From a virus, in the IMG/VR virus record IMGVR_UViG_3300025778_000010, positions 32,001-96,000 of that record: 64,000 nt of DNA; one strand, written 5' to 3'. Positions 24,455-52,397 of this stretch are shown here, one piece after another. The first letter of the stretch is position 1, and each line of letters begins with the position of its first letter. The notes under the pieces were generated by a model. The model was not told the DNA's origin. It worked only from the letters and a program-made list of their open reading frames with translations, and made no database searches. The position numbers were made by a program, and so were the translations under genes.

Positions 24455-24483
24455 TTGAAAATGTCAGTGGTGTGTGTTATAGT
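24455..24483 (+). promoter_or_regulatory. SigA promoter with PafBC-type element
   Basis: TTGAAA-17-TATAGT containing TGTCAG-N10-TATAGT. Confidence 0.8.
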
Positions 24484-24539
24484 TACACTATAAGAAATTA
24501 ACAAAGGTTGTTAGTTTAACTTAAAGAAAGGAAGTCAAA

Positions 24540-24764
24540 ATGACTTCACTAAATAACTACTATAATGAAATCCGTATGGATATTGCTAAAGATTTTGGTC
24601 TAGAGGCAGGTGGCTATGCTCCCCGCCCTAAGTTAATGCCTATCACTATCGCTCAGCGTATTAACGCTAAGTATCCTAGTGTAGATAATGGCTCTCGTTG
24701 GGGTCAGCCTAATCCAAAGGCTATCCTAATCGCTAAGCGTTATCACGCTCTGTTTGTGGCGTAA
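24540..24764 (+). CDS. hypothetical early protein
   Basis: AAAGGAAG RBS, first gene after promoter. Confidence 0.7.
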   Translation: MTSLNNYYNEIRMDIAKDFGLEAGGYAPRPKLMPITIAQRINAKYPSVDNGSRWGQPNPKAILIAKRYHALFVA

Positions 24765-24820
24765 GTCACAATCACGGCACGGCGTGTCGAGTTGATTTTG
24801 TCAGCCCTATCTGATAGACT
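24755..24820 (+). promoter_or_regulatory. composite promoter: CRP-type box, GACAC box, -35, PafBC-type element, extended -10
   Basis: TGTGG-N6-TCACA; CGGCGTGTCG; TTGATT-17-TAGACT with TGTCAG-N10-TAGACT. Confidence 0.8.
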
Positions 24821-24850
24821 TCCAGTCATACAAATTAAATAAAGAAAAAT

Positions 24851-24924
24851 CCTAGTTGAGCCTCTGAGCCTTAGCAAATAATCCGAAAGGTGAGCCTAAG
24901 CAAATAAGAGCAAATAACACTAGG
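24851..24924 (+). ncRNA. structured leader RNA with three identical internal loops
   Basis: Nested stems CCUAGU/ACUAGG, CUC/GAG, CUUAG/CUAAG and CC-GAAA-GG separated by UGAGC/CAAAUAA loops. Confidence 0.7.
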
Positions 24925-24975
24925 CAAGGAAAGATAGATAAAAGGTTTATCTATAAAAAAAGAAAGGTGACTAAT

Positions 24976-25122
24976 ATGTCATACTCATTCGATAATAATA
25001 ATAAAGACCGTTGGTCAGAACTAGCAGACAATTATCAATCAATGCTAGATGAACTAGCAGAATCAGAATCAGAATCTGTATTTATCCCCGTACCTGCGTT
25101 TGATGTAGACGAGGTGCTCTAA
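24976..25122 (+). CDS. small acidic early protein (48 aa)
   Basis: Read manually: MSYSFDNNNKDRWSELADNYQSMLDELAESESES...; GAAAGGTG RBS. Confidence 0.65.
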   Translation: MSYSFDNNNKDRWSELADNYQSMLDELAESESESVFIPVPAFDVDEVL

Positions 25123-25215
25123 TGACTATAAATAGTTTAACTCTCATTTCACTATTGCTAGTGTCGTACCTATCTGCTAAACTACTAACCGATAAAGAAT
25201 GGGGAAAGAATAAAA

Positions 25216-25422
25216 ATGAAAACTAAGATTATCGTACTAGGATTAGCACTCGCTCTAATTCCCGCCGTTGCTAACGCTCGTGGCACAAGCCATCATTCTT
25301 ATAGCCTGTCTAGTGTAGGTCGCTACACTTATCACTATCACAAGCCTAGCCATATCTATTGCCCATATCAAGGCTGTAAAAAATCGTTCTCTAGTTTCAC
25401 TAGCACTAGTGGCGGAAACTAA
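25216..25422 (+). CDS. small secreted His-rich protein
   Basis: Signal peptide (ANA-R), His/Tyr-rich, one Cys pair. Confidence 0.55.
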   Translation: MKTKIIVLGLALALIPAVANARGTSHHSYSLSSVGRYTYHYHKPSHIYCPYQGCKKSFSSFTSTSGGN

Positions 25423-25444
25423 TGTCAGTGGTCTATGGTAGACT
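25423..25444 (+). promoter_or_regulatory. PafBC-type promoter without canonical -35
   Basis: TGTCAG-N10-TAGACT. Confidence 0.7.
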
Positions 25445-25479
25445 ACTATTAACAACAACAAGAAAAGGAAAATAAATAA

Positions 25480-25644
25480 ATGACAATCGAAAATCGTACT
25501 TACCAAATCGGTGACCTATTCACCACACAACGCTCAAAGGTAACAGGAACAATTAAGGAAATTGTAAATGTAAAGCCTAACCAATCTCGTGTGAAGTTGG
25601 AAGTTGACGGCAAAGACCGCTGGACAACTGTCACAATCAAGTAA
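25480..25644 (+). CDS. small beta-barrel-like protein, paralog 1
   Basis: MTIENRTYQIGDLFTTQRSKVTG...; AAAGGA RBS. Confidence 0.75.
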   Translation: MTIENRTYQIGDLFTTQRSKVTGTIKEIVNVKPNQSRVKLEVDGKDRWTTVTIK

Positions 25645-25663
25645 AGTTTAGCAAATCGCTAAA

Positions 25664-25691
25664 CGACCTGAGCAAGTCGGAAAAAGGCTCA
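25664..25691 (+). ncRNA. H-type pseudoknot motif, copy 1
   Basis: CGAC-CUGAGCAA-GUCG...GCUCA; same architecture at 48342-48375. Confidence 0.5.
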
Positions 25692-25723
25692 ACTAATACC
25701 CAACAAAGAAAAGGAAAAAAAGA

Positions 25724-25894
25724 ATGACACTACACGGATACACTTATCAAATCGGAGATTTATTCACCACATCAAAGACAGGCGTAACTGGACGAATTAA
25801 CTCGTTCTCTCCTGTATCAAATAAAGTAACTCGTGTTGGTCTAACTTTAGCAAATGGCTCAAAGCGTATTGCTATGGTAAAGACAACGAAGTAA
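25724..25894 (+). CDS. small beta-barrel-like protein, paralog 2
   Basis: MTLHGYTYQIGDLFTTSKTGVTG...; AAAGGA RBS. Confidence 0.75.
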   Translation: MTLHGYTYQIGDLFTTSKTGVTGRINSFSPVSNKVTRVGLTLANGSKRIAMVKTTK

Positions 25895-25975
25895 AAATAA
25901 AATAAGTTTAGGCGGGACTGCACACTAATAACGACACTCCCGCCTAATTCACAAAACACGAAAGGAAAACTAATT

Positions 25976-26158
25976 ATGTCAATGTCACGCAAGGACTATG
26001 TTTCAACCGCTGAAATTATTAATTCTTATGCTTCAGAAATTAAACTCGAAGTGCTAGAAGATCTAGTAAATGATTTCATCGAAATGTTCGCATCAGATAA
26101 CGAGCGATTCAATAGCGATAGATTTTGGGACGAGTGTTTTAAAAACACAAATCACTAA
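25976..26158 (+). CDS. hypothetical early protein
   Basis: GAAAGGA RBS; MSRKDY...DNERFNSDRF. Confidence 0.75.
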   Translation: MSMSRKDYVSTAEIINSYASEIKLEVLEDLVNDFIEMFASDNERFNSDRFWDECFKNTNH

Positions 26159-26172
26159 ATAAAAATAAAAGC

Positions 26173-26205
26173 TTAGGCGTAGCAAAATTGCTACGCCTAA
26201 TTTTA
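26173..26205 (+). terminator. intrinsic terminator
   Basis: TTAGGCGTAGCAA-AA-TTGCTACGCCTAA followed by TTTT. Confidence 0.75.
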
Positions 26206-26314
26206 TTAAAAAATAAAAAAAAATAACGGCGTGTCGGCTTGACAAAGCCGAGCCGAGGGGCTGGCCCAAAAAATCGGACATTTACGGCATTTAAGACATT
26301 CGATATACACAGAT

Positions 26315-26335
26315 TTATCCACAAGCTGTGGATTA
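26315..26335. promoter_or_regulatory. inverted pair of DnaA-box-like sites
   Basis: TTATCCACA (perfect) and TGTGGATTA (1 mismatch). Confidence 0.5.
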
Positions 26336-26364
26336 TTGTTCATCTTAAATTAACCTAAAACTTA

Positions 26365-26404
26365 CGGCGTGTCGCTTGATTTTTTCGATTTTATCTGATA
26401 AACT
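26365..26404 (+). promoter_or_regulatory. GACAC-box promoter, diverged copy of the 24780 promoter
   Basis: CGGCGTGTCG; TTGATT-17-TAAACT. Confidence 0.7.
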
Positions 26405-26437
26405 TCCAGTTATAAAATTAAATAAAGATATAAAAAA

Positions 26438-26453
26438 TGTGATGTACTTCACA
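26438..26453. promoter_or_regulatory. perfect CRP/GlxR-type palindrome
   Basis: AAA-TGTGA-TGTACT-TCACA. Confidence 0.65.
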
Positions 26454-26562
26454 AAGTACACGCTCCAAATATTGAGACTACTCCCCAGTATACTCGATAG
26501 TAGCGAAAAAGTATGTTAAACTAGCGATAGTTAAACAGTTAAAAAAGAAAGGTGGTCATAAA

Positions 26563-26862
26563 ATGGCTACACTAGAAGTAAAAGTAAATGATAGTTTTGT
26601 TCCGCTTGAGTATGCTCCAAGCGATGTAAAGATTTCTCTTGAGTGGGCGTTAATGAATAATGCTCCAATGGTAGTAAAATCCACTACCCCCGCCGTTGTT
26701 CGTGTTTGCAAAGTTTGCGAATATGCACACGAAGGTTTGTATTGCACAAATTGTTTCACGGGTGAGCGTGTAAATTGCTCCCCTGCTGGCAAGTTTAATA
26801 AATGGTCAAAAGTGATGCGAATCACACCAACTACTTGCAACAAATCTCGGCGTGTCGCCTAG
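26563..26862 (+). CDS. Cys-rich hypothetical early protein
   Basis: GAAAGGTGG RBS; CKVC and CTNC. Confidence 0.65.
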   Translation: MATLEVKVNDSFVPLEYAPSDVKISLEWALMNNAPMVVKSTTPAVVRVCKVCEYAHEGLYCTNCFTGERVNCSPAGKFNKWSKVMRITPTTCNKSRRVA

Positions 26863-26888
26863 ATAATGTCAGTATAATCTGATATAAT
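26848..26888 (+). promoter_or_regulatory. GACAC-box plus PafBC-type promoter
   Basis: CGGCGTGTCG; TAGATA-17-TATAAT; TGTCAG-N10-TATAAT. Confidence 0.8.
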
Positions 26889-26922
26889 TCCAACTATCAA
26901 CAAAAAGAAAGGTGGCAACTTA

Positions 26923-27147
26923 ATGCTAATCTCAGAAGCCTTAGAAGGCAAATATGTAAAGTCCTCAAAAGGACAAGGCATAATCCAATATGCAGATTTC
27001 CGAAAGGATATGCACCACTCTACCCCTGAGGGTTATCTTGCTTATGCTTGCAAGGTTCGCCCTACTTATAACCCTGAAGTGCATAAGTTTATTCCAGAAG
27101 ATTTCTGGACAACAATTTATGTCGGATTGGATAGTGAATTACTATGA
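26923..27147 (+). CDS. hypothetical early protein
   Basis: GAAAGGTGG RBS. Confidence 0.7.
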   Translation: MLISEALEGKYVKSSKGQGIIQYADFRKDMHHSTPEGYLAYACKVRPTYNPEVHKFIPEDFWTTIYVGLDSELL

Positions 27148-27350
27148 CAATTAAAATTGGTGGGCTAGGGCAGACAATTTCTGCCTATTGCCCAGTATGC
27201 TCTCAAAAGATGACCCATATGTGTATCGCTACACTTGGAACGGGTAAAACAATTCGCTATGAGTGGCAATGCCAGCCTTGCGAATTATCTCTAAAGTCTG
27301 ACTCAACAGGCTATGCTCATCTACTCACAGAAATGGCTTACTATGTCTGA
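27144..27350 (+). CDS. zinc-ribbon hypothetical protein
   Basis: CPVC and CQPC; ATGA overlap. Confidence 0.65.
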   Translation: MTIKIGGLGQTISAYCPVCSQKMTHMCIATLGTGKTIRYEWQCQPCELSLKSDSTGYAHLLTEMAYYV

Positions 27351-27459
27351 TAAAATTTTCATATGTGATGAATGTGATACCCTTGCCACAATGTCAGTGC
27401 AAGGTGATACAATAACTATAAATAAATGTAAGTGCTTAACTTTAGAATGGAGCAACTAA
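27343..27459 (+). CDS. 38-aa Cys-rich protein with an embedded PafBC-type promoter
   Basis: MSDKIFICDECDTLATMSVQGDTITINKCKC...; TGTCAG-N10-TACAAT at 27392-27413. Confidence 0.5.
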   Translation: MSDKIFICDECDTLATMSVQGDTITINKCKCLTLEWSN

Positions 27460-27665
27460 TGTACAAAATTACAACAACCTATGACGGAAATCCCGTCCCA
27501 CACTCTATTCACTCTTATGCTGATGCACTTGATGCGTTTGACTCGTTTGGTCGTTGCACCGATTGGGGATTTGCAGATGAATATGCAACCTACAATTTAA
27601 CTTTACCTGATGGAAAAATGTACACAAAGATTTTTTATCGTAGCGGAAAAGTTGGTGGAAAGTAA
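27459..27665 (+). CDS. hypothetical early protein
   Basis: GGAG RBS, start MYKITT. Confidence 0.7.
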   Translation: MYKITTTYDGNPVPHSIHSYADALDAFDSFGRCTDWGFADEYATYNLTLPDGKMYTKIFYRSGKVGGK

Positions 27666-27962
27666 TGGCAACAACAATTCACCTTGGCGGAATAGAATCA
27701 GAATGTGAGAAGTGTCGTGAAATTGCGGGAGAAAATAATGAATAAAGTAAATCGTGTTCAAGAGTTGCGGAGATCAAATGCTGCAACTCCAATTCGTAAC
27801 AAGAAAAAATATACACGTAAAAATAAATATAAAAATAAATTTGAATAAATATTTATAACATTGCATAGCTATGCGACACGCCCGAGTGCGGCTGGCCCCT
27901 GTCAACTCGACACGCCGATTACGGGGTGTGATTTTAATCTCCCAAATACTGGCGGGTACAAC

Positions 27963-27991
27963 TAGATAATGTCAGTGGGTTCTGCTATACT
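27963..27991 (+). promoter_or_regulatory. PafBC-type promoter
   Basis: TAGATA-17-TATACT; TGTCAG-N10-TATACT. Confidence 0.8.
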
Positions 27992-28021
27992 TCCGATATC
28001 AAGAAAAGAAAGGGGCATTAA

Positions 28022-28249
28022 ATGTCTACTGTTGCCACATATTGCAAAGATTGCAATAAGCGTTTATCTGATATTTCAGTATATGACGCTCCCTATACTT
28101 CCGATTCTACTTGCTGGGAGTGTATCTTCAAGTCCTGCGATAACTGCTATGGTCAAGGAATTACTGGATGGGTATCTCCAGATGGTGATTTTGATTTTGA
28201 TTATTGCGAGTGCAACCCACTTTGCCTAACACTAGAAGAGGTCAAATAA
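28022..28249 (+). CDS. Cys-rich zinc-finger protein
   Basis: GAAAGGGG RBS; three CxxC and one CxC. Confidence 0.7.
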   Translation: MSTVATYCKDCNKRLSDISVYDAPYTSDSTCWECIFKSCDNCYGQGITGWVSPDGDFDFDYCECNPLCLTLEEVK

Positions 28250-28440
28250 TGACTAATGAAACTATTTTTGAAGTAGCCTGCCTATACTATGAAGTATGCG
28301 GTACAAGCGAAGTATTCTACTCTGAAGAAGAGTATGATATCTATGGCGATGATTATGTCTGCCCTGAGTGCTATTATCAGATGGCGGAAATGGAGTCTGA
28401 TTCCTTCCCGCTATCTTTAGAATATGATGAGGGGGAATAA
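28249..28440 (+). CDS. small acidic zinc-binding protein
   Basis: GAGG RBS, start MTNETI; D/E/Y-rich; CPEC. Confidence 0.65.
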   Translation: MTNETIFEVACLYYEVCGTSEVFYSEEEYDIYGDDYVCPECYYQMAEMESDSFPLSLEYDEGE

Positions 28441-28518
28441 TGTCTGACAAGTCTGCTCAAGATCTATTTAATGAAATGGATACCCTTTGGGATAATTTCA
28501 AGAAAGCCACATGGCAAA

Positions 28519-28540
28519 TGTCAGTGGTGCCTGCTACAAT
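28519..28540 (+). promoter_or_regulatory. PafBC-type promoter
   Basis: TGTCAG-N10-TACAAT. Confidence 0.75.
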
Positions 28541-28563
28541 AACATCCTTAACCCAACCAAAGA

Positions 28564-29049
28564 ATGGAAACTAACATGACAACAACCCTAACCCGTGGCG
28601 AAGCCAAAGATACAATTGATTTCGCAATTGAACAATTTATCAACGAGATTGAAGTCTCTGATGATATGCTATTAACGATTACCTATGCCGTAAATAATGA
28701 CTTGCAGATTCGTGATTACTTCCTTGGGCTCCCGTCCGATTATGGTATGCAGGTATGCGTTGATTTTGTCAACTATCTTTCACGAGTAACTAATGCACGA
28801 GAAGGATATGCATATGACACAATTTCTGCAATGTATCATATTGAACAAGGCAACACAGACTTGGCTAAGTCTCTGCTAGAAATTGCAGAAAAAAATAATC
28901 CTGATTATAATCTCATGAAACTTGCGAAGAGAATTCTTTCAGCAGGTTGGCCAGGTTCCGAATTAACTAGAATGCGTAATGAATTGCATTCTTCAGTTGT
29001 GGATACTATCACCGAAGAGCCAAATATTTTAATTGAAGAGGTGGCGTAA
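28564..29049 (+). CDS. helical hypothetical protein (DUF4192-like)
   Basis: DLQIRDYFLG...PDYNLMKL resembles the actinobacterial DUF4192 C-part. Confidence 0.5.
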   Translation: METNMTTTLTRGEAKDTIDFAIEQFINEIEVSDDMLLTITYAVNNDLQIRDYFLGLPSDYGMQVCVDFVNYLSRVTNAREGYAYDTISAMYHIEQGNTDLAKSLLEIAEKNNPDYNLMKLAKRILSAGWPGSELTRMRNELHSSVVDTITEEPNILIEEVA

Positions 29050-29207
29050 TGTCAGCACCATATGCAACAATTAACGGCGTTGAGGTTCATGAGGACCTCA
29101 ACGGCTATGCCGTGGTCATGAAGAATGGCAAGGTAATTAAAAAGTATACCAACTCAAGAGAAGACGCATTAGGCAAAGCAATGCACTATGCACAGGAGAT
29201 TAAATAA
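29049..29207 (+). CDS. hypothetical 52-aa protein
   Basis: Read manually: MSAPYATINGVEVHED...; GAGGTGG RBS. Confidence 0.6.
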   Translation: MSAPYATINGVEVHEDLNGYAVVMKNGKVIKKYTNSREDALGKAMHYAQEIK

Positions 29208-29423
29208 ATGGCAAAGCATCCACCAGTCAACAGTGCACAATGGCATTCTGTATTTGCAGATGATCAATGCAAAATTTATCAAGACGGTAACGATGATATT
29301 TTTTTCAAGGTCATGATCAAGGGCCAACGTGTTAAATATTTTTATAATGAAACAGCTCATAGCGACGTTGCACGTTACTGCAGCGACGAGCTTGGAATTA
29401 GCTATTGGTCCGTATTAAATTAA
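29208..29423 (+). CDS. hypothetical early protein
   Basis: AGGAG RBS. Confidence 0.7.
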   Translation: MAKHPPVNSAQWHSVFADDQCKIYQDGNDDIFFKVMIKGQRVKYFYNETAHSDVARYCSDELGISYWSVLN

Positions 29424-29684
29424 TTTAACTTGGGTGGGGAATAAAATGCAAGCGGTAGCATATGTATTGGTCTATGGATCTGCATTCGCTATCGCATGCA
29501 TTTTTTATTTTATATTTTCTAAAAAAGATTTTTAAATGCGGTGTGTCGAGTTGACAACCGTTGATTTTTGGGCTGGCCCGTCAAGCCGACACGCCGTTTA
29601 CGGGGCGTGATTTTAATCACATGGAATGGGCGGGGACAAAACGGACATATCAGACAAATCATTATTTAACTTAGGCTTTACGGG

Positions 29685-29714
29685 TAGACAGATGTCAGCC
29701 TTATCTGCTAGAAT
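29685..29714 (+). promoter_or_regulatory. PafBC-type promoter
   Basis: TAGACA-18-TAGAAT; TGTCAG-N10-TAGAAT. Confidence 0.8.
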
Positions 29715-29745
29715 AGGCATACATTAACAGAAAGAAGGAAAAAAT

Positions 29746-30786
29746 ATGACTAACCCAATGTCACAGGTTCATCGCTCAGAAGTTGAGGATGGTTCTGTAT
29801 CTCTTGCTGTATCACTTCGCACAAATCCTGCATGGCACTCTTTTGCTAACAAGGTATTTGCTAAGGATGAGCAAGTCACAACCGCACAAATGCTAGATGC
29901 TGCTAAACTCTCAAATTGGAATGTTTCTCTTGAGTCTGTTTCAGATTTATTGCCAGACAACTATGATTCTGTTAGCGAGAATTTTTTGGTTGTTCGTGAT
30001 AACCCTTACACAGCAGGACAAAAAGATGTTCTCTCAGTTGTAGGCTCACGCTATAAGGCTGTTCAGAATGAAGAACTCTTTTCTTTTGCAGATAACCTAC
30101 ATGATGGAAACCCTGATGTAAATTGGGAAAGTGCAGGTTCTCTAAAGAATGGTCGTGTTGTATTTGGCACAATGTCAATTCCCCGCACTATGGTTCTTGA
30201 CCCTAATGGTGCTAATGACACTACCAATCTTTATCTCGTAGTTTACACTTCACACGATGGTTCAGTTGCGGTTCAATCTGCAATTACCCCTGTTCGTGTT
30301 ATGTGTCAAAACACTCTTAATTTCGCTATGCGTAAGGCTAAGCAATCTTTCAAGATTCGCCACACTCAGACAGTAGATGGAAAAATTGCTGCTGCTCGTG
30401 AGACTCTAGGTCTAACTCTTGCGTACATGGATGAATTCGAAACACAAGCAAAAGAACTTTTCTCTCGTGAAGTGACAAATGCTAAGTTTAGCGAAATCAT
30501 TAACAAGATGTATCCTAAGCCAGAGGCAGATGTTAAGGGTTCAATCAAGAAGTGGGAAAACAAGGTTGTTCTGCTTGATGACCTTTACCATAACTCTCCT
30601 ACTAATGCTAATATCAAGGGTACAGCATGGGGCGTTGTAAATGCTCTAACCGAACGCCTTGATTACTATCGCACAGCCCGCAAGGGAAACAGCGATTCGC
30701 TAATGGCAGGTGCAAGCGGATTTGACCCTGTTATCACAGCAGAAAAAAATAAAATTGTTAAGCAGGTTCTTGCACTTACCGCTTAA
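29746..30786 (+). CDS. DUF932 family phage/plasmid protein
   Basis: PAWH, Y-x-x-VQN, ESAGSLKNGR, SHDGS, TPVRVMCQNTL, GTAWGVVNALTE. Confidence 0.85.
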   Translation: MTNPMSQVHRSEVEDGSVSLAVSLRTNPAWHSFANKVFAKDEQVTTAQMLDAAKLSNWNVSLESVSDLLPDNYDSVSENFLVVRDNPYTAGQKDVLSVVGSRYKAVQNEELFSFADNLHDGNPDVNWESAGSLKNGRVVFGTMSIPRTMVLDPNGANDTTNLYLVVYTSHDGSVAVQSAITPVRVMCQNTLNFAMRKAKQSFKIRHTQTVDGKIAAARETLGLTLAYMDEFETQAKELFSREVTNAKFSEIINKMYPKPEADVKGSIKKWENKVVLLDDLYHNSPTNANIKGTAWGVVNALTERLDYYRTARKGNSDSLMAGASGFDPVITAEKNKIVKQVLALTA

Positions 30787-30792
30787 TAAATT

Positions 30793-30814
30793 GTGAGGGG
30801 CGAAAGCCCCTCAC
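30793..30814 (+). terminator. GC-rich hairpin with GAAA loop (terminator or processing site)
   Basis: GTGAGGGGC-GAAA-GCCCCTCAC. Confidence 0.6.
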
Positions 30815-30821
30815 CTCTCTT

Positions 30822-30895
30822 GATTCCATAGATCAATTGGTTAGATCGCTACCCTGTCACGGTAGAGGTTGCGGGTTCAAGTCCCGTTGGAATCG
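30822..30895 (+). tRNA. tRNA-Asp(GTC)
   Basis: Cloverleaf; anticodon arm CTACC-CTGTCAC-GGTAG; no encoded CCA. Confidence 0.93.
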
Positions 30896-31045
30896 CAAAG
30901 TTTAAATGGTCATCACGGCGTGTCGAGTTGACAAAACAGCTGGGGCGGGCTGGCCCCATAAAATCCATAATGTCAAGTCTTTACGGATGTGATTATAAAC
31001 ACATTTACGGATGACCGATATGTCCGATTTGTCTGCGTGTCTAAA

Positions 31046-31074
31046 TTGATTACTCATGGGTAACTTGCTATAAT
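31046..31074 (+). promoter_or_regulatory. SigA promoter, near-leaderless
   Basis: TTGATT-17-TATAAT with TG extension; ATG 8 nt downstream. Confidence 0.7.
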
Positions 31075-31082
31075 ACTCACCT

Positions 31083-31724
31083 ATGGAAAATGTAAAAGAA
31101 ACTTGGTTCAAATGGGATTATGTATGCCCAAATTGCGATGCACATATTGAGATGACTATTAAATCTAATGGTCATCCACATAGCGAGATTTGTTCTAAAT
31201 GCTATGAGCGTCTAACTCTGATGTCAGTGGTAGATGCTACAATATACCCAACTCAAAAGAAAGAAGAACAAACTATGGAAACAACAATCGCTGAACTTTA
31301 TAACCCAAATATGTTGGTTACATATAAGAAGATTACTGATGGTAATACTGAATATATTACTGATAAGGTAACTGATATTGAGTGGGCTCTTGCTCAATCC
31401 CGCCGTAACTATGAGAGCCTTACAGAGCAACAAAATAATTGGTATCTCAAAGAGTCAAAACTACGCACTTTGCTAAATGATGTATTTCACGATTCAGAAG
31501 ACCAAGACACACTTGAAAAAATTGCTGATATTTTTGATGTTCCACTAACTAAGGAAATCGAAGTAACCGCTTGGGTCAATGTCAATATGACTATCGAAGT
31601 TGATATGCGTGAAGGCGAATATGATGTTGAAGACCTTGTTCGCAATAATCTCACAGTAGATGCCTATGGTGGAGAAATCACAGTTCACGACTTTGATGTA
31701 GACCGAGTAGAGGAGCAATACTAA
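31083..31724 (+). CDS. hypothetical protein: N-terminal Zn ribbon and likely second in-frame start at 31275
   Basis: CPNC and CSKC; internal TGTCAG-N10-TACAAT at 31222-31243 before METT. Confidence 0.7.
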   Translation: MENVKETWFKWDYVCPNCDAHIEMTIKSNGHPHSEICSKCYERLTLMSVVDATIYPTQKKEEQTMETTIAELYNPNMLVTYKKITDGNTEYITDKVTDIEWALAQSRRNYESLTEQQNNWYLKESKLRTLLNDVFHDSEDQDTLEKIADIFDVPLTKEIEVTAWVNVNMTIEVDMREGEYDVEDLVRNNLTVDAYGGEITVHDFDVDRVEEQY

Positions 31725-35182: not shown

Positions 35183-35271
35183 TTCGAACAAAATCCTAGC
35201 GTTCAGGTGTCAGCCAAGTTAGGTATACAAGGGCAGTTCACGAGTCATTCCGTGAACTGCCTTTCTCTTTT
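35183..35271 (+). ncRNA. candidate ~90-nt sRNA
   Basis: TTGACA-18-TATAAT (35148-35177) followed by an ORF-less stretch ending in a terminator. Confidence 0.5.
35232..35271 (+). terminator. intrinsic terminator
   Basis: GGCAGTTCACG-N8-CGTGAACTGCC-TTTCTCTTTT. Confidence 0.85.
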
Positions 35272-44315: not shown

Positions 44316-44559
44316 CAGTGTATTTCATCCCTTCTATTTCGCATGGAGTCCCAAATGCTTGAATTAATTCACGAACATGAAGTAAGTATTCCATGATCTG
44401 CATTCTTTGACTTTCGTTGTATTCCATAACATTACTTTCATAAACAGTTAAAGCAAGGTAGTTTGGTCTTGCTCTGACATCTAATATAAGATTTTTAACA
44501 GGACATTTAATTGCCCTAATCCTTTTAGCCATTTCAACTGTGTAAGATATTTTTGCCAT
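44281..44559 (-). CDS. hypothetical protein
   Basis: Coupled ORF. Confidence 0.65.
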   Translation of the reverse strand: MAKISYTVEMAKRIRAIKCPVKNLILDVRARPNYLALTVYESNVMEYNESQRMQIMEYLLHVRELIQAFGTPCEIEGMKYTDEQARARRGQR

Positions 44560-44860
44560 GAATTTTCTTTAACTGACTCCATATTTCTGGGTCTTTGTGT
44601 GAGTTATTTTGTTTATCTATACGACCTAAGTCCATAAAAATACCGCCTCGTACACCAAACTCTTTATTTGCTACACCTTCTTTATGACATTGTTTAATTA
44701 CTGGACAATGTAAACAAACTTGATCAATTTGTTTGGCAAGCTCTTTATCTGATTCATAATCATCATAAAACCAATTAATTGACATATTTGTGCATGCTGC
44801 AAGGTGATACCATTTGATATCAACTTCATCAATTCCTAAATGACTAAATAAACCTGGCAT
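44534..44860 (-). CDS. whiB: WhiB family Fe-S transcription factor
   Basis: W...AAC...VCLHCPVIKQC...FGVRGG (four Cys plus a GVWGG-like turn). Confidence 0.85.
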   Translation of the reverse strand: MPGLFSHLGIDEVDIKWYHLAACTNMSINWFYDDYESDKELAKQIDQVCLHCPVIKQCHKEGVANKEFGVRGGIFMDLGRIDKQNNSHKDPEIWSQLKKIHGKNILHS

Positions 44861-45074
44861 ACTTATCGCTAACCTTCCAAGTACCACGGTTAGTCATTTT
44901 ATAATAAGTTGCGTATCCCCACTTACCTTTTCTAAACAAACCATTTGTTGCCATGTAACCATCAGGGTTTTGATTCCACTTTACTAAAGTATAACCGTCC
45001 CAAAAAAAATTGTTTTTAATATTTTTTTCTACAAAAGCATGTGCTTCTTCGTAGTTTAATTCAAAAGATGGCAT
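44844..45074 (-). CDS. hypothetical protein
   Basis: Coupled ORF. Confidence 0.7.
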   Translation of the reverse strand: MPSFELNYEEAHAFVEKNIKNNFFWDGYTLVKWNQNPDGYMATNGLFRKGKWGYATYYKMTNRGTWKVSDKYARFI

Positions 45075-47351: not shown

Positions 47352-47424
47352 TGCCCTTGGCAGGAATCGAACCTGCGACGCAGACCTTAGAAGAGTCTCG
47401 CTCTATCCCCTGAGCTACAAAGGC
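47352..47424 (-). tRNA. tRNA-Arg(TCT)
   Basis: Cloverleaf; AGACT-CTTCTAA-GGTCT. Confidence 0.92.
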
Positions 47425-47425
47425 G

Positions 47426-47498
47426 TACCCCAAGACAGATTCGAACTGTCGCTGTATGGATTTTAAGTCCACTATCTCTACCGCTGGATTACTGGGGC
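47426..47498 (-). tRNA. tRNA-Leu(TAA), short variable loop
   Basis: Cloverleaf; GTGGA-CTTAAAA-TCCAT; 5-nt variable region. Confidence 0.85.
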
Positions 47499-51165: not shown

Positions 51166-51236
51166 AGCGAATAGCGGGAATTGAACCCGCACATTAACCT
51201 TGGCAAGGTTACGCACTACCACTATGCAATATTCGC
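51166..51236 (-). tRNA. tRNA-Gly(GCC)
   Basis: Cloverleaf; TAACC-TTGCCAA-GGTTA. Confidence 0.92.
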
Positions 51237-51243
51237 AAATAGG

Positions 51244-51358
51244 GGCTATATGTGAGTATTCCAGCACCGAATGACGCTGCCCTATCTCCCCGAACTCTTA
51301 TACTCGGGTACATGTTTATGTGTAACTATATCCATACTAAGGTGTGTCACATATAGCC
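51244..51358 (-). ncRNA. unknown structured RNA between tRNA-Gln and tRNA-Gly
   Basis: 12-bp closing stem GGCTATATGTGA/TCACATATAGCC with internal hairpins. Confidence 0.55.
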
Positions 51359-51361
51359 TTG

Positions 51362-51432
51362 CTCTCAGACCTGGACTCGAACCAAGATACTTGCCTCCAA
51401 AGGGCAATGTCCTACCATTAGACGATCTGAGA
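51362..51432 (-). tRNA. tRNA-Gln(TTG)
   Basis: Cloverleaf; TTGCC-CTTTGGA-GGCAA. Confidence 0.9.
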
Positions 51433-52324: not shown

Positions 52325-52397
52325 CTGCCCCAAGTGGACTCGAACCAATAACCTGCCGATTAACAGTCGGCTGCTCTGCCAATTGAGCTATGGGGCA
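52325..52397 (-). tRNA. tRNA-Asn(GTT)
   Basis: Cloverleaf; GCCGA-CTGTTAA-TCGGC. Confidence 0.92.

Follow-up and report, generated by a model that had tools for sequence, protein, structure and literature searches.

A 74-base RNA hairpin at the head of an operon of an uncultivated freshwater phage (24851–24924) belongs, judging from the comparison of its homologues, to a structured RNA family that is absent from Rfam and recurs in at least 117 related IMG/VR stretches. The conserved unit of this family is predicted to be a dyad-symmetric duplex of two 17-mers, UGAGCCUNAGCAAAUAA, with a 5-bp helix between the loops. The explanation preferred here, tentatively and at somewhat less than even confidence, is that the hairpin is a leader module on which a dimeric protein, probably of the host, docks. 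Coordinates refer to the window, which is the whole 64,000-nucleotide stretch of DNA that was analyzed.

Read directly, the element runs CCUAGU-[UGAGC]-CUC-[UGAGC]-CUUAG-[CAAAUAA]-UCC GAAA GG-[UGAGC]-CUAAG-[CAAAUAA]-GAG-[CAAAUAA]-C-ACUAGG, where square brackets mark the loop strands. This agrees to the letter with the leader drawn in the earlier note, and RNAfold recovers the same nesting of four stems (CCUAGU/ACUAGG, CUC/GAG, CUUAG/CUAAG and CC/GG, with GAAA closing the innermost). UGAGC begins at 24857, 24865 and 24891, and CAAAUAA at 24875, 24901 and 24911. All parts lie on the plus strand. The 5' side of an accessory outer layer (24851–24864) is composed of a P0 strand (CCUAGU, 24851–24856), UGAGC (24857–24861) and a P1 strand (CUC, 24862–24864); its 3' side (24908–24924) is composed of the P1 strand GAG (24908–24910), CAAAUAA (24911–24917), a single C and the P0 strand ACUAGG (24919–24924). 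The first copy of the core 17-mer (24865–24881) contains UGAGC (24865–24869), the 5' strand of P2 (CUUAG, 24870–24874) and CAAAUAA (24875–24881), while the second (24891–24907) contains UGAGC (24891–24895), the 3' strand of P2 (CUAAG, 24896–24900) and CAAAUAA (24901–24907). The two copies are joined by the P3 cap (24882–24890), in which a U is followed by CC, the GAAA tetraloop and GG.

Three copies of AGCAAAUAA fall inside 45 nt of the element, compared to an expectation of 2.3 for the whole 64-kb window. The folding energy tells less. With RNAfold, the element has a minimum free energy of -11.3 kcal/mol (z = 0.12), a value that 109 of 200 shuffled sequences equalled or bettered, and the whole leader has a z of -0.96. 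Thus, the fold of the element is not thermodynamically special and its energy is uninformative; it is the comparison of homologues that places the pattern beyond chance.

An exact-pattern scan of IMG/VR with the 17-mer identified the stretches counted above, most of which have two copies. The copies are spaced 26–35 nt apart and, among the IMG/VR matches listed, mostly 26, 28, 29 or 35 nt apart. A second IMG/VR scan for short spacings contributed 20 additional loci, and a metagenome scan with the 17-mer pair returned at least 120 contigs. After removal of duplicates, there were 125 distinct cores among the matches listed, and 79 distinct homologues were placed in an alignment, A1. From 5' to 3', A1 presents a variable outer stem P1, usually an A, UGAGC, CUNAG, CAAAUAA, a purine and a variable capped stem P3, and continues with a purine, UGAGC, CUN'AG, CAAAUAA, usually a G, and the 3' strand of P1. 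Since the CUNAG segments pair with each other, the UGAGC/CAAAUAA loop flanks the 5-bp helix on both sides in inverted orientation, making the RNA dyad-symmetric. RNAalifold adds a pair between the C of CAAAUAA and the second G of UGAGC, with one C bulged per side. Ahead of the element, a conserved A-rich 5' leader block, AAUUAAAUAA (24833–24842, plus strand), has a TAAATA core that is at least 90% conserved in A1; the block is missing from some short-form relatives.

The earlier note had described a single asymmetric loop that is built three times. While this is true of the window, the conserved unit is the dyad-symmetric pair of loops, and the third UGAGC/CAAAUAA layer, located outside a 3-bp stem in the window form, is present in approximately 17 of the approximately 125 distinct forms among the matches listed. 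The stem inside the third loop covaries in these three-loop relatives (CUC/GAG, CUGU/ACAG, CUA/UAG and CUG/CAG) and attains 7–8 bp in relative L042. Two individual contigs may be mentioned. IMGVR_UViG_3300028025_002046 (94.6 kb) carries two elements (L164:1701–1746 and L168:986–1031) that differ in P1 and in the P2 centre pair, each directly before the SD of a different early cassette. On a 1.8-kb contig binned as Saccharibacteria (L127:477–519), the outer stem is 10 bp in length (GCCACCGACA/UGUCGGUGGC) and its 3' strand is also the TGTCGGTG box of the next promoter, so that RNA stem and promoter element overlap.

Selection on the fold is apparent from the stems of A1. Across the 79 distinct homologues, 93.1% of stem cells pair, compared with 78.9% when partners are shuffled and 26–41% in slid-column controls. 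None of 500 shuffles matched the observed pairing values, double changes were found at 10 of the 15 stem pairs, and both P1 and P2 were recovered de novo by RNAalifold. The centre bases of P2 are complementary in all 125 distinct cores among the matches listed, and all four Watson-Crick pairs are used (UA 59, AU 45, CG 12, GC 9). Within A1, no change is seen at the remaining four P2 pairs or at any loop base, leaving the pair on the dyad as the only position of the core that varies. Rare exceptions in copies were CGAAUAA (about a dozen), CGAGC and UGCGC. A pattern scan for P2 helices that begin with a base other than C gave four matches, all of them false, and a scan for gaps of 20–49 nt between the copies was also negative.

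The outer and apical stems are far more diverse in sequence. P1 is represented by 42 distinct complementary helices of 3–11 bp among the matches listed, with a mean length of 4.4 bp compared to 2.4 bp with shuffled partners, and 11 of its 549 pairs are G-U when read on the plus strand only. P3 also covaries (CC/GG, CCA/UGG, CCC/GGG, CGA/UCG, CCGC/GCGG and UGUGA/UCACA), ranging from CC/GG to UCGAAC/GUUCGA, and its caps among the short forms are GAAA, GCAA, UUCG or GAUA. Taken together, the RNA-type caps, the G-U pairs of P1 and the upstream promoters indicate that it is the plus-strand RNA that folds, rather than duplex DNA or the other strand. With the loops invariant and the stems covarying in metagenomic homologues, both in A1 and in the 125 cores, the selection on RNA structure that the earlier note had argued from one sequence is well supported.

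The same bases can also be read as codons. When preceded by A or G, the 17-mer becomes AUG/GUG-AGC-CUN-AGC-AAA-UAA (MSLSK-stop), and the copies may then be tandem mini-ORFs that are either translated into a pentapeptide or serve as start-stop regulatory ORFs. This frame is present in nearly all copies, A or G precedes UGAGC in most of them, and the sole variable base occupies the third position of the Leu codon. However, the other synonymous positions (AGC, AAA, UAA) are constant in 79 sequences, and the rare changes are either non-synonymous or destroy the start (AAA to GAA, AGC to CGC, UG to CG). There is also no consistent SD, and copy 1 of the window would have to start at CUG. The third bases of the two CUN codons are mutually complementary in 125 of 125 cores among the matches listed, which coding cannot explain. 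A coding role is considered extremely improbable. In some three-loop relatives, the outer copy is fused in frame, an example being MSLLSLSK in L001.

A role at the level of DNA deserves equally little credence. Here, the repeats would be operators or iterons located between two promoters, or would form a single-stranded DNA hairpin that acts as an origin or hairpin promoter. In the commonest form of the family, in which the copies are 35 nt apart, the element does sit between two promoters, and its apical stem TGTGA-N6-TCACA is also a CRP/GlxR-type DNA box (e.g., L010:10364–10415 and L060:4697–4748). In contrast, repeats in duplex DNA give no reason for complementary centre bases, nor for P1 and P3, and with the complementarity of the centre bases the reading as a duplex-DNA operator fails. 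Furthermore, the CRP-like stem is replaced elsewhere by short stems with the RNA-type caps GAAA, GCAA and UUCG, and the G-U pairs are restricted to the plus strand. In the 35-nt form, a second promoter, TGTCAG-N10-TAnnnT, is found between the element and the first gene, within approximately 35 nt past the CRP/GlxR-type box. On the basis of these motifs, the TGTGA-N6-TCACA bases may double as RNA stem and DNA operator.

In the window, the element is preceded by a terminator-like hairpin, CGGCACGGCGTGTCG followed by AGTTGATTTT (24775–24789, plus strand), that closes an upstream unit of small ORFs (24540–24764). A GGCGTGTCG-AGTTGATTTT block is found upstream of the elements of relatives as well. 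Next is a promoter-like site (24792–24820, plus strand) that reads directly as TTGATT (24792–24797), a 17-nt spacer and a -10 hexamer of TAGACT (24815–24820), with TG at 24812–24813 and an overlapping TGTCAG at 24799–24804. The element starts approximately 30 nt past the -10 hexamer. The earlier note had assigned a promoter here. The site in the window scores under the threshold of a generic promoter scan, but the hexamers of relatives are stronger: the closest relative, L039, has TTGACT-17-TATAAT at the equivalent position, and L060 has a consensus-like TTGACT-17-TAGGAT. Promoter-like sites of the form TGTCAG-N10-TAnnnT recur before the early cassettes of the window (24462–31243), and similar sites flank the element in most relatives.

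A second hairpin, AUAGAUAAA-AGG-UUUAUCUAU (24934–24954, plus strand), lies between the element and the SD, as the earlier note had described. Its AU-rich arms (24934–24942 and 24946–24954) form 9 bp. The hairpin is maintained with a differing sequence in three-loop relatives (GAUUAGA/UCUAAUC, GGUUAGA/UCUAACC, AGUUAGA/UCUAACU, GAUAAC/GUUAUC and GUUAGC/GCUAAC) and is facultative among relatives in general, with L057, L093, L165 and L171 being devoid of it. The SD GAAAGGUGA (24962–24970) and the first ORF of the operon follow (24962–25122 in all, plus strand; ATG at 24976), the latter encoding an acidic protein of 48 aa that belongs to no family. Altogether, seven small ORFs stand behind the element in a unit that ends at a strong terminator-like hairpin of 12 bp followed by TTTTATT (26173–26200, plus strand). 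This hairpin is G+C-rich with T-runs on both strands and has the look of a bidirectional terminator. More terminator-like sites were noted at 27911–27930, 29590–29609 and 35229–35264.

Some of the operon's products recur near other elements. Two paralogous proteins of approximately 55 aa (25480–25644 and 25724–25894) share a KOW-like GDxFTTxKSGVTGxI motif without a Pfam match; this family is found in 47 of 109 element loci among the matches listed, often in multiple copies. A 60-aa acidic protein of an MMTRKDYV family (25976–26158) has only a weak match to PHROG 2922. From ORF clustering, which covered element loci only, its family is the commonest neighbour (82 of 109 loci among the matches listed). 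The protein is unlikely to be an RNA binder.

The earlier note had not recognized the RNA as a member of a known family, and the searches concur. Against Rfam 15, only tRNAs reached the gathering score in the whole window and only tRNAs were identified in twelve relatives. Relaxing the search of 24700–25050 to an E of up to 10 produced chance matches of at most 18 bits, and nothing above 13 bits was found in L060 4640–4820. The tRNA genes of the window are six in number (Rfam RF00005, 55–69 bits) and are located at 30822–30895, 47352–47498, 51166–51432 and 52325–52397.

Individual motifs were also considered. In a kink-turn, tandem sheared G-A and A-G pairs come after a bulge of 3 nt, and GA is needed on both strands. 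Since the long loop strand CAAAUAA contains no G, and the 1b position would be a U, the element is not a kink-turn; a gene of the L7Ae family is absent from the phage and from an actinobacterial control genome. Type III antitoxin RNAs (ToxI-like) are tandem direct repeats of approximately 34–45 nt that are followed by the gene of a toxin endoribonuclease. The repeat here is limited to the 17-nt core, its copies pair within one hairpin, and no downstream gene is conserved, so a ToxI-like RNA was discarded.

Riboswitches in general are associated with a defined set of genes and possess an expression platform. Membership in such a class was rejected, as the downstream ORFs are unrelated and neither a terminator nor an SD-sequestering alternative was seen. 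A looser version, in which the symmetric loops would be pockets for a small ligand, such as a symmetric dinucleotide or an ion, and would tune early expression to the state of the host, is very unlikely. It would account for loop bases that are invariant while stems vary, as is typical of aptamers, and the RNA is pseudo-two-fold symmetric; but neither an expression platform nor an alternative pairing is conserved, no association with a gene family and no Rfam similarity was found, and the RNA offers only about 50 nt with short helices. A lead on the shape of the loops is provided by the UAA/GAN internal-loop module, a recurrent three-dimensional module in which 5'-UAA-3' lies opposite 5'-GAN-3' (PMC2615604). 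CAAAUAA opposite UGAGC, near an A-rich bulge, matches the sequence signature of this and the related UA_handle modules (PMC2615604). As the match is one of sequence signature and the module is a building block rather than a functional family, it is to be taken as a lead on shape and not as a functional assignment.

The source record is a single contig of 108,356 bp with structural, replication and packaging genes, a G+C content of approximately 36% and one copy of the element. Since it encodes a WhiB protein (44534–44887, minus strand; PF02467, 37 bits) and its terminase shares 65% identity with the terminases of Gilson and other cultured Streptomyces phages, the host is likely an actinobacterium. 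The carriers as a group encode WhiB and are probably actinophages of fresh and brackish water. Terminases of other carriers are 55–58% identical to that of the source phage, or 83% for the closest, and nonetheless the 17-mer is identical, while flanks and downstream genes differ between carriers. An element that is more conserved than its carriers favors a conserved partner, probably one of the host.

A blastn search of the region and the element against 50,697 GenBank phage records gave no true match; a 38-nt match of 85% to Kolesnikvirus phages adjoins a tRNA-Pro, lacks the motif and was attributed to chance. In 185,579 species genomes, the two-copy pattern had five true matches, all on MAG contigs resembling binned phage, and the other 25 matches were unrelated tandem repeats. 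A literature search for the loop sequences found nothing relevant, and one for surveys of phage RNA motifs yielded no papers.

With respect to its neighbours, the element invariably has the same orientation as the ORFs that follow it, and it has no terminator of its own. In short forms, it ends 4–25 nt before the SD. In L060, it is the first feature past the TTGACT-17-TAGGAT promoter of a divergent regulatory region. The first downstream ORFs represent many unrelated small-protein families, and no universal neighbour gene was found when all ORFs in 109 loci among the matches listed were clustered. An element that is always sense, lies directly upstream of ORFs and lacks a terminator is no less consistent with a cis-acting leader than with a free decoy.

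The earlier note had suggested that the RNA is made very early and may be a decoy or anti-defence sponge. Neither suggestion gained support here, and the decoy was considered in two versions. In the first, an abundant early RNA with two or three identical loops would sequester an RNA-binding protein of the host, a nuclease or toxin of a defence system, or an immune signalling molecule. Its appeal lies in the multivalent loops, in an invariance over divergent phages that suggests a host target, in the irrelevance of the downstream gene, and in the commonest form, where a strong consensus-like promoter apparently serves this RNA alone and the second promoter drives the genes. However, downstream of the element there is neither a terminator nor another defined 3' end, the short-form element is a plain 5' UTR of the next gene, and no host RNA with the module was found in the 185,579 species genomes, where the matches were the five phage-like MAG contigs only. 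This version is rather unlikely. The second version is less likely again and would have the symmetric invariant loops of an abundant immediate-early decoy trap or mimic a dimeric factor conserved in hosts, such as a defence nuclease, a toxin or a housekeeping RNase, or act as a sink for a small symmetric signalling molecule, with no protein counterpart.

In the preferred explanation, the docking of a dimeric protein, transcription would begin at the 24792–24820 promoter and place the element within the first 100 nt or so of the early mRNA. The variable outer stem and the variable capped apical stem would hold the core together, and the invariant loops with the four invariant P2 pairs would form the site at which a protein with two-fold symmetry, a homodimer, docks. 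A phage protein is a less likely partner than a conserved factor of the host, for example a dimer of the RNase III type or another that binds RNA. Its docking would set the fate of the early transcript through processing, stability or translation of the following cistrons, and the third loop of the window variant may be an extra half-site. An enzyme of the RNase III type is among the candidates for the partner, given the analogy of the T7 early leader.

Four observations point toward a two-fold symmetric macromolecule that is conserved in hosts: the dyad symmetry of the RNA, the restriction of variation to the dyad, an invariance that reaches beyond that of the carriers, and the lack of a linked phage gene. 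A phage-encoded partner was sought. The phage has no gene of the RNase III family, the small ORFs near the element gave no match in PHROGs or Pfam scans, and the operon's small proteins are acidic and without family. Several features weigh against docking by a dimer. Between the third loop and the core lies a stem of variable length (3–8 bp), the orientation of this loop is not the one that a second dimer would need, and the predicted helices are short in a fold that folding energy does not single out. In addition, the second promoter of the commonest form means that many gene transcripts would not contain the element, which weakens a purely cis role.

To our knowledge, structured RNAs this conserved are few. 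Comparably conserved RNAs have repeatedly proved to be riboswitches, ribozymes, or elements on which a polymerase or protein docks. The element repeats 17 invariant nucleotides twice in phages whose terminases are only about 55% identical, it is abundant in lake metagenomes, and it stands at the start of early operons in phages whose hosts are probably actinobacteria; the 50,697 records searched contain no cultured model of this group. A simple dyad-symmetric duplex of two identical strands is an unusual design, and its simplicity and symmetry lead to clear predictions that can be checked cheaply by mutagenesis, pull-down and crystallography. Knowing the partner would reveal how these phages take over their host in the first minutes of infection, in a phylum whose RNA-based regulation is poorly known.

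Among known leader RNAs, three provide useful comparisons. The RAT hairpin, a short leader structure whose two internal loops are quasi-symmetric, is bound by dimers of the LicT/SacY/BglG antiterminators and overlaps a terminator. The element is likewise a short leader hairpin with two symmetric internal loops, but it has a different sequence, occurs in a different phylum and overlaps no terminator. The RNase III hairpins of the T7 early region (R0.3 and others) are found in the leader and between cistrons, have conserved internal loops and are recognized by a homodimeric host enzyme. The likeness is that of an internal-loop hairpin in an early phage leader. RNase III sites normally have a helix of about 20 bp and are not invariant in sequence across distant phages, whereas the element has helices of 3–5 bp and 17 invariant nucleotides.

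The closest comparison is with the put RNAs of phage HK022, and from it arises another explanation, which is possible but unlikely: the nascent element may be a processive antiterminator that binds the transcribing host RNA polymerase and allows early terminators to be resisted without a protein factor. The put RNA is approximately 70 nt in length, is located just downstream of an early phage promoter and works by its fold rather than by coding (PMC9378689). Its two stem-loops are arranged as a V, and stem I contains a minor-groove triplex; the RNA binds the zinc-binding domain of the β' subunit of RNA polymerase and, with no protein factor involved, suppresses termination (PMC9378689). Terminator-like hairpins do follow the element in the early region (26173–26200, 27911, 29590 and 35229), extreme conservation would suit a conserved host target such as RNA polymerase, and the element is present once in the source genome. 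In contrast, the early region is split into cassettes with promoters of their own, the commonest form has its second promoter directly after the element, and on the two-copy contig both elements sit just before an SD inside cassettes. RNA polymerase also lacks two-fold symmetry. No sequence similarity between put and the element is apparent by eye. From covariation, the element is one continuous hairpin of P1, P2 and P3, a single rod with dyad-symmetric identical loops, rather than two stems in a V with a triplex. What the element shares with HK022 putL and putR is a length of approximately 70 nt, an indifference to the identity of the downstream genes, and a location directly past an early promoter, as for putL (PMC9378689).
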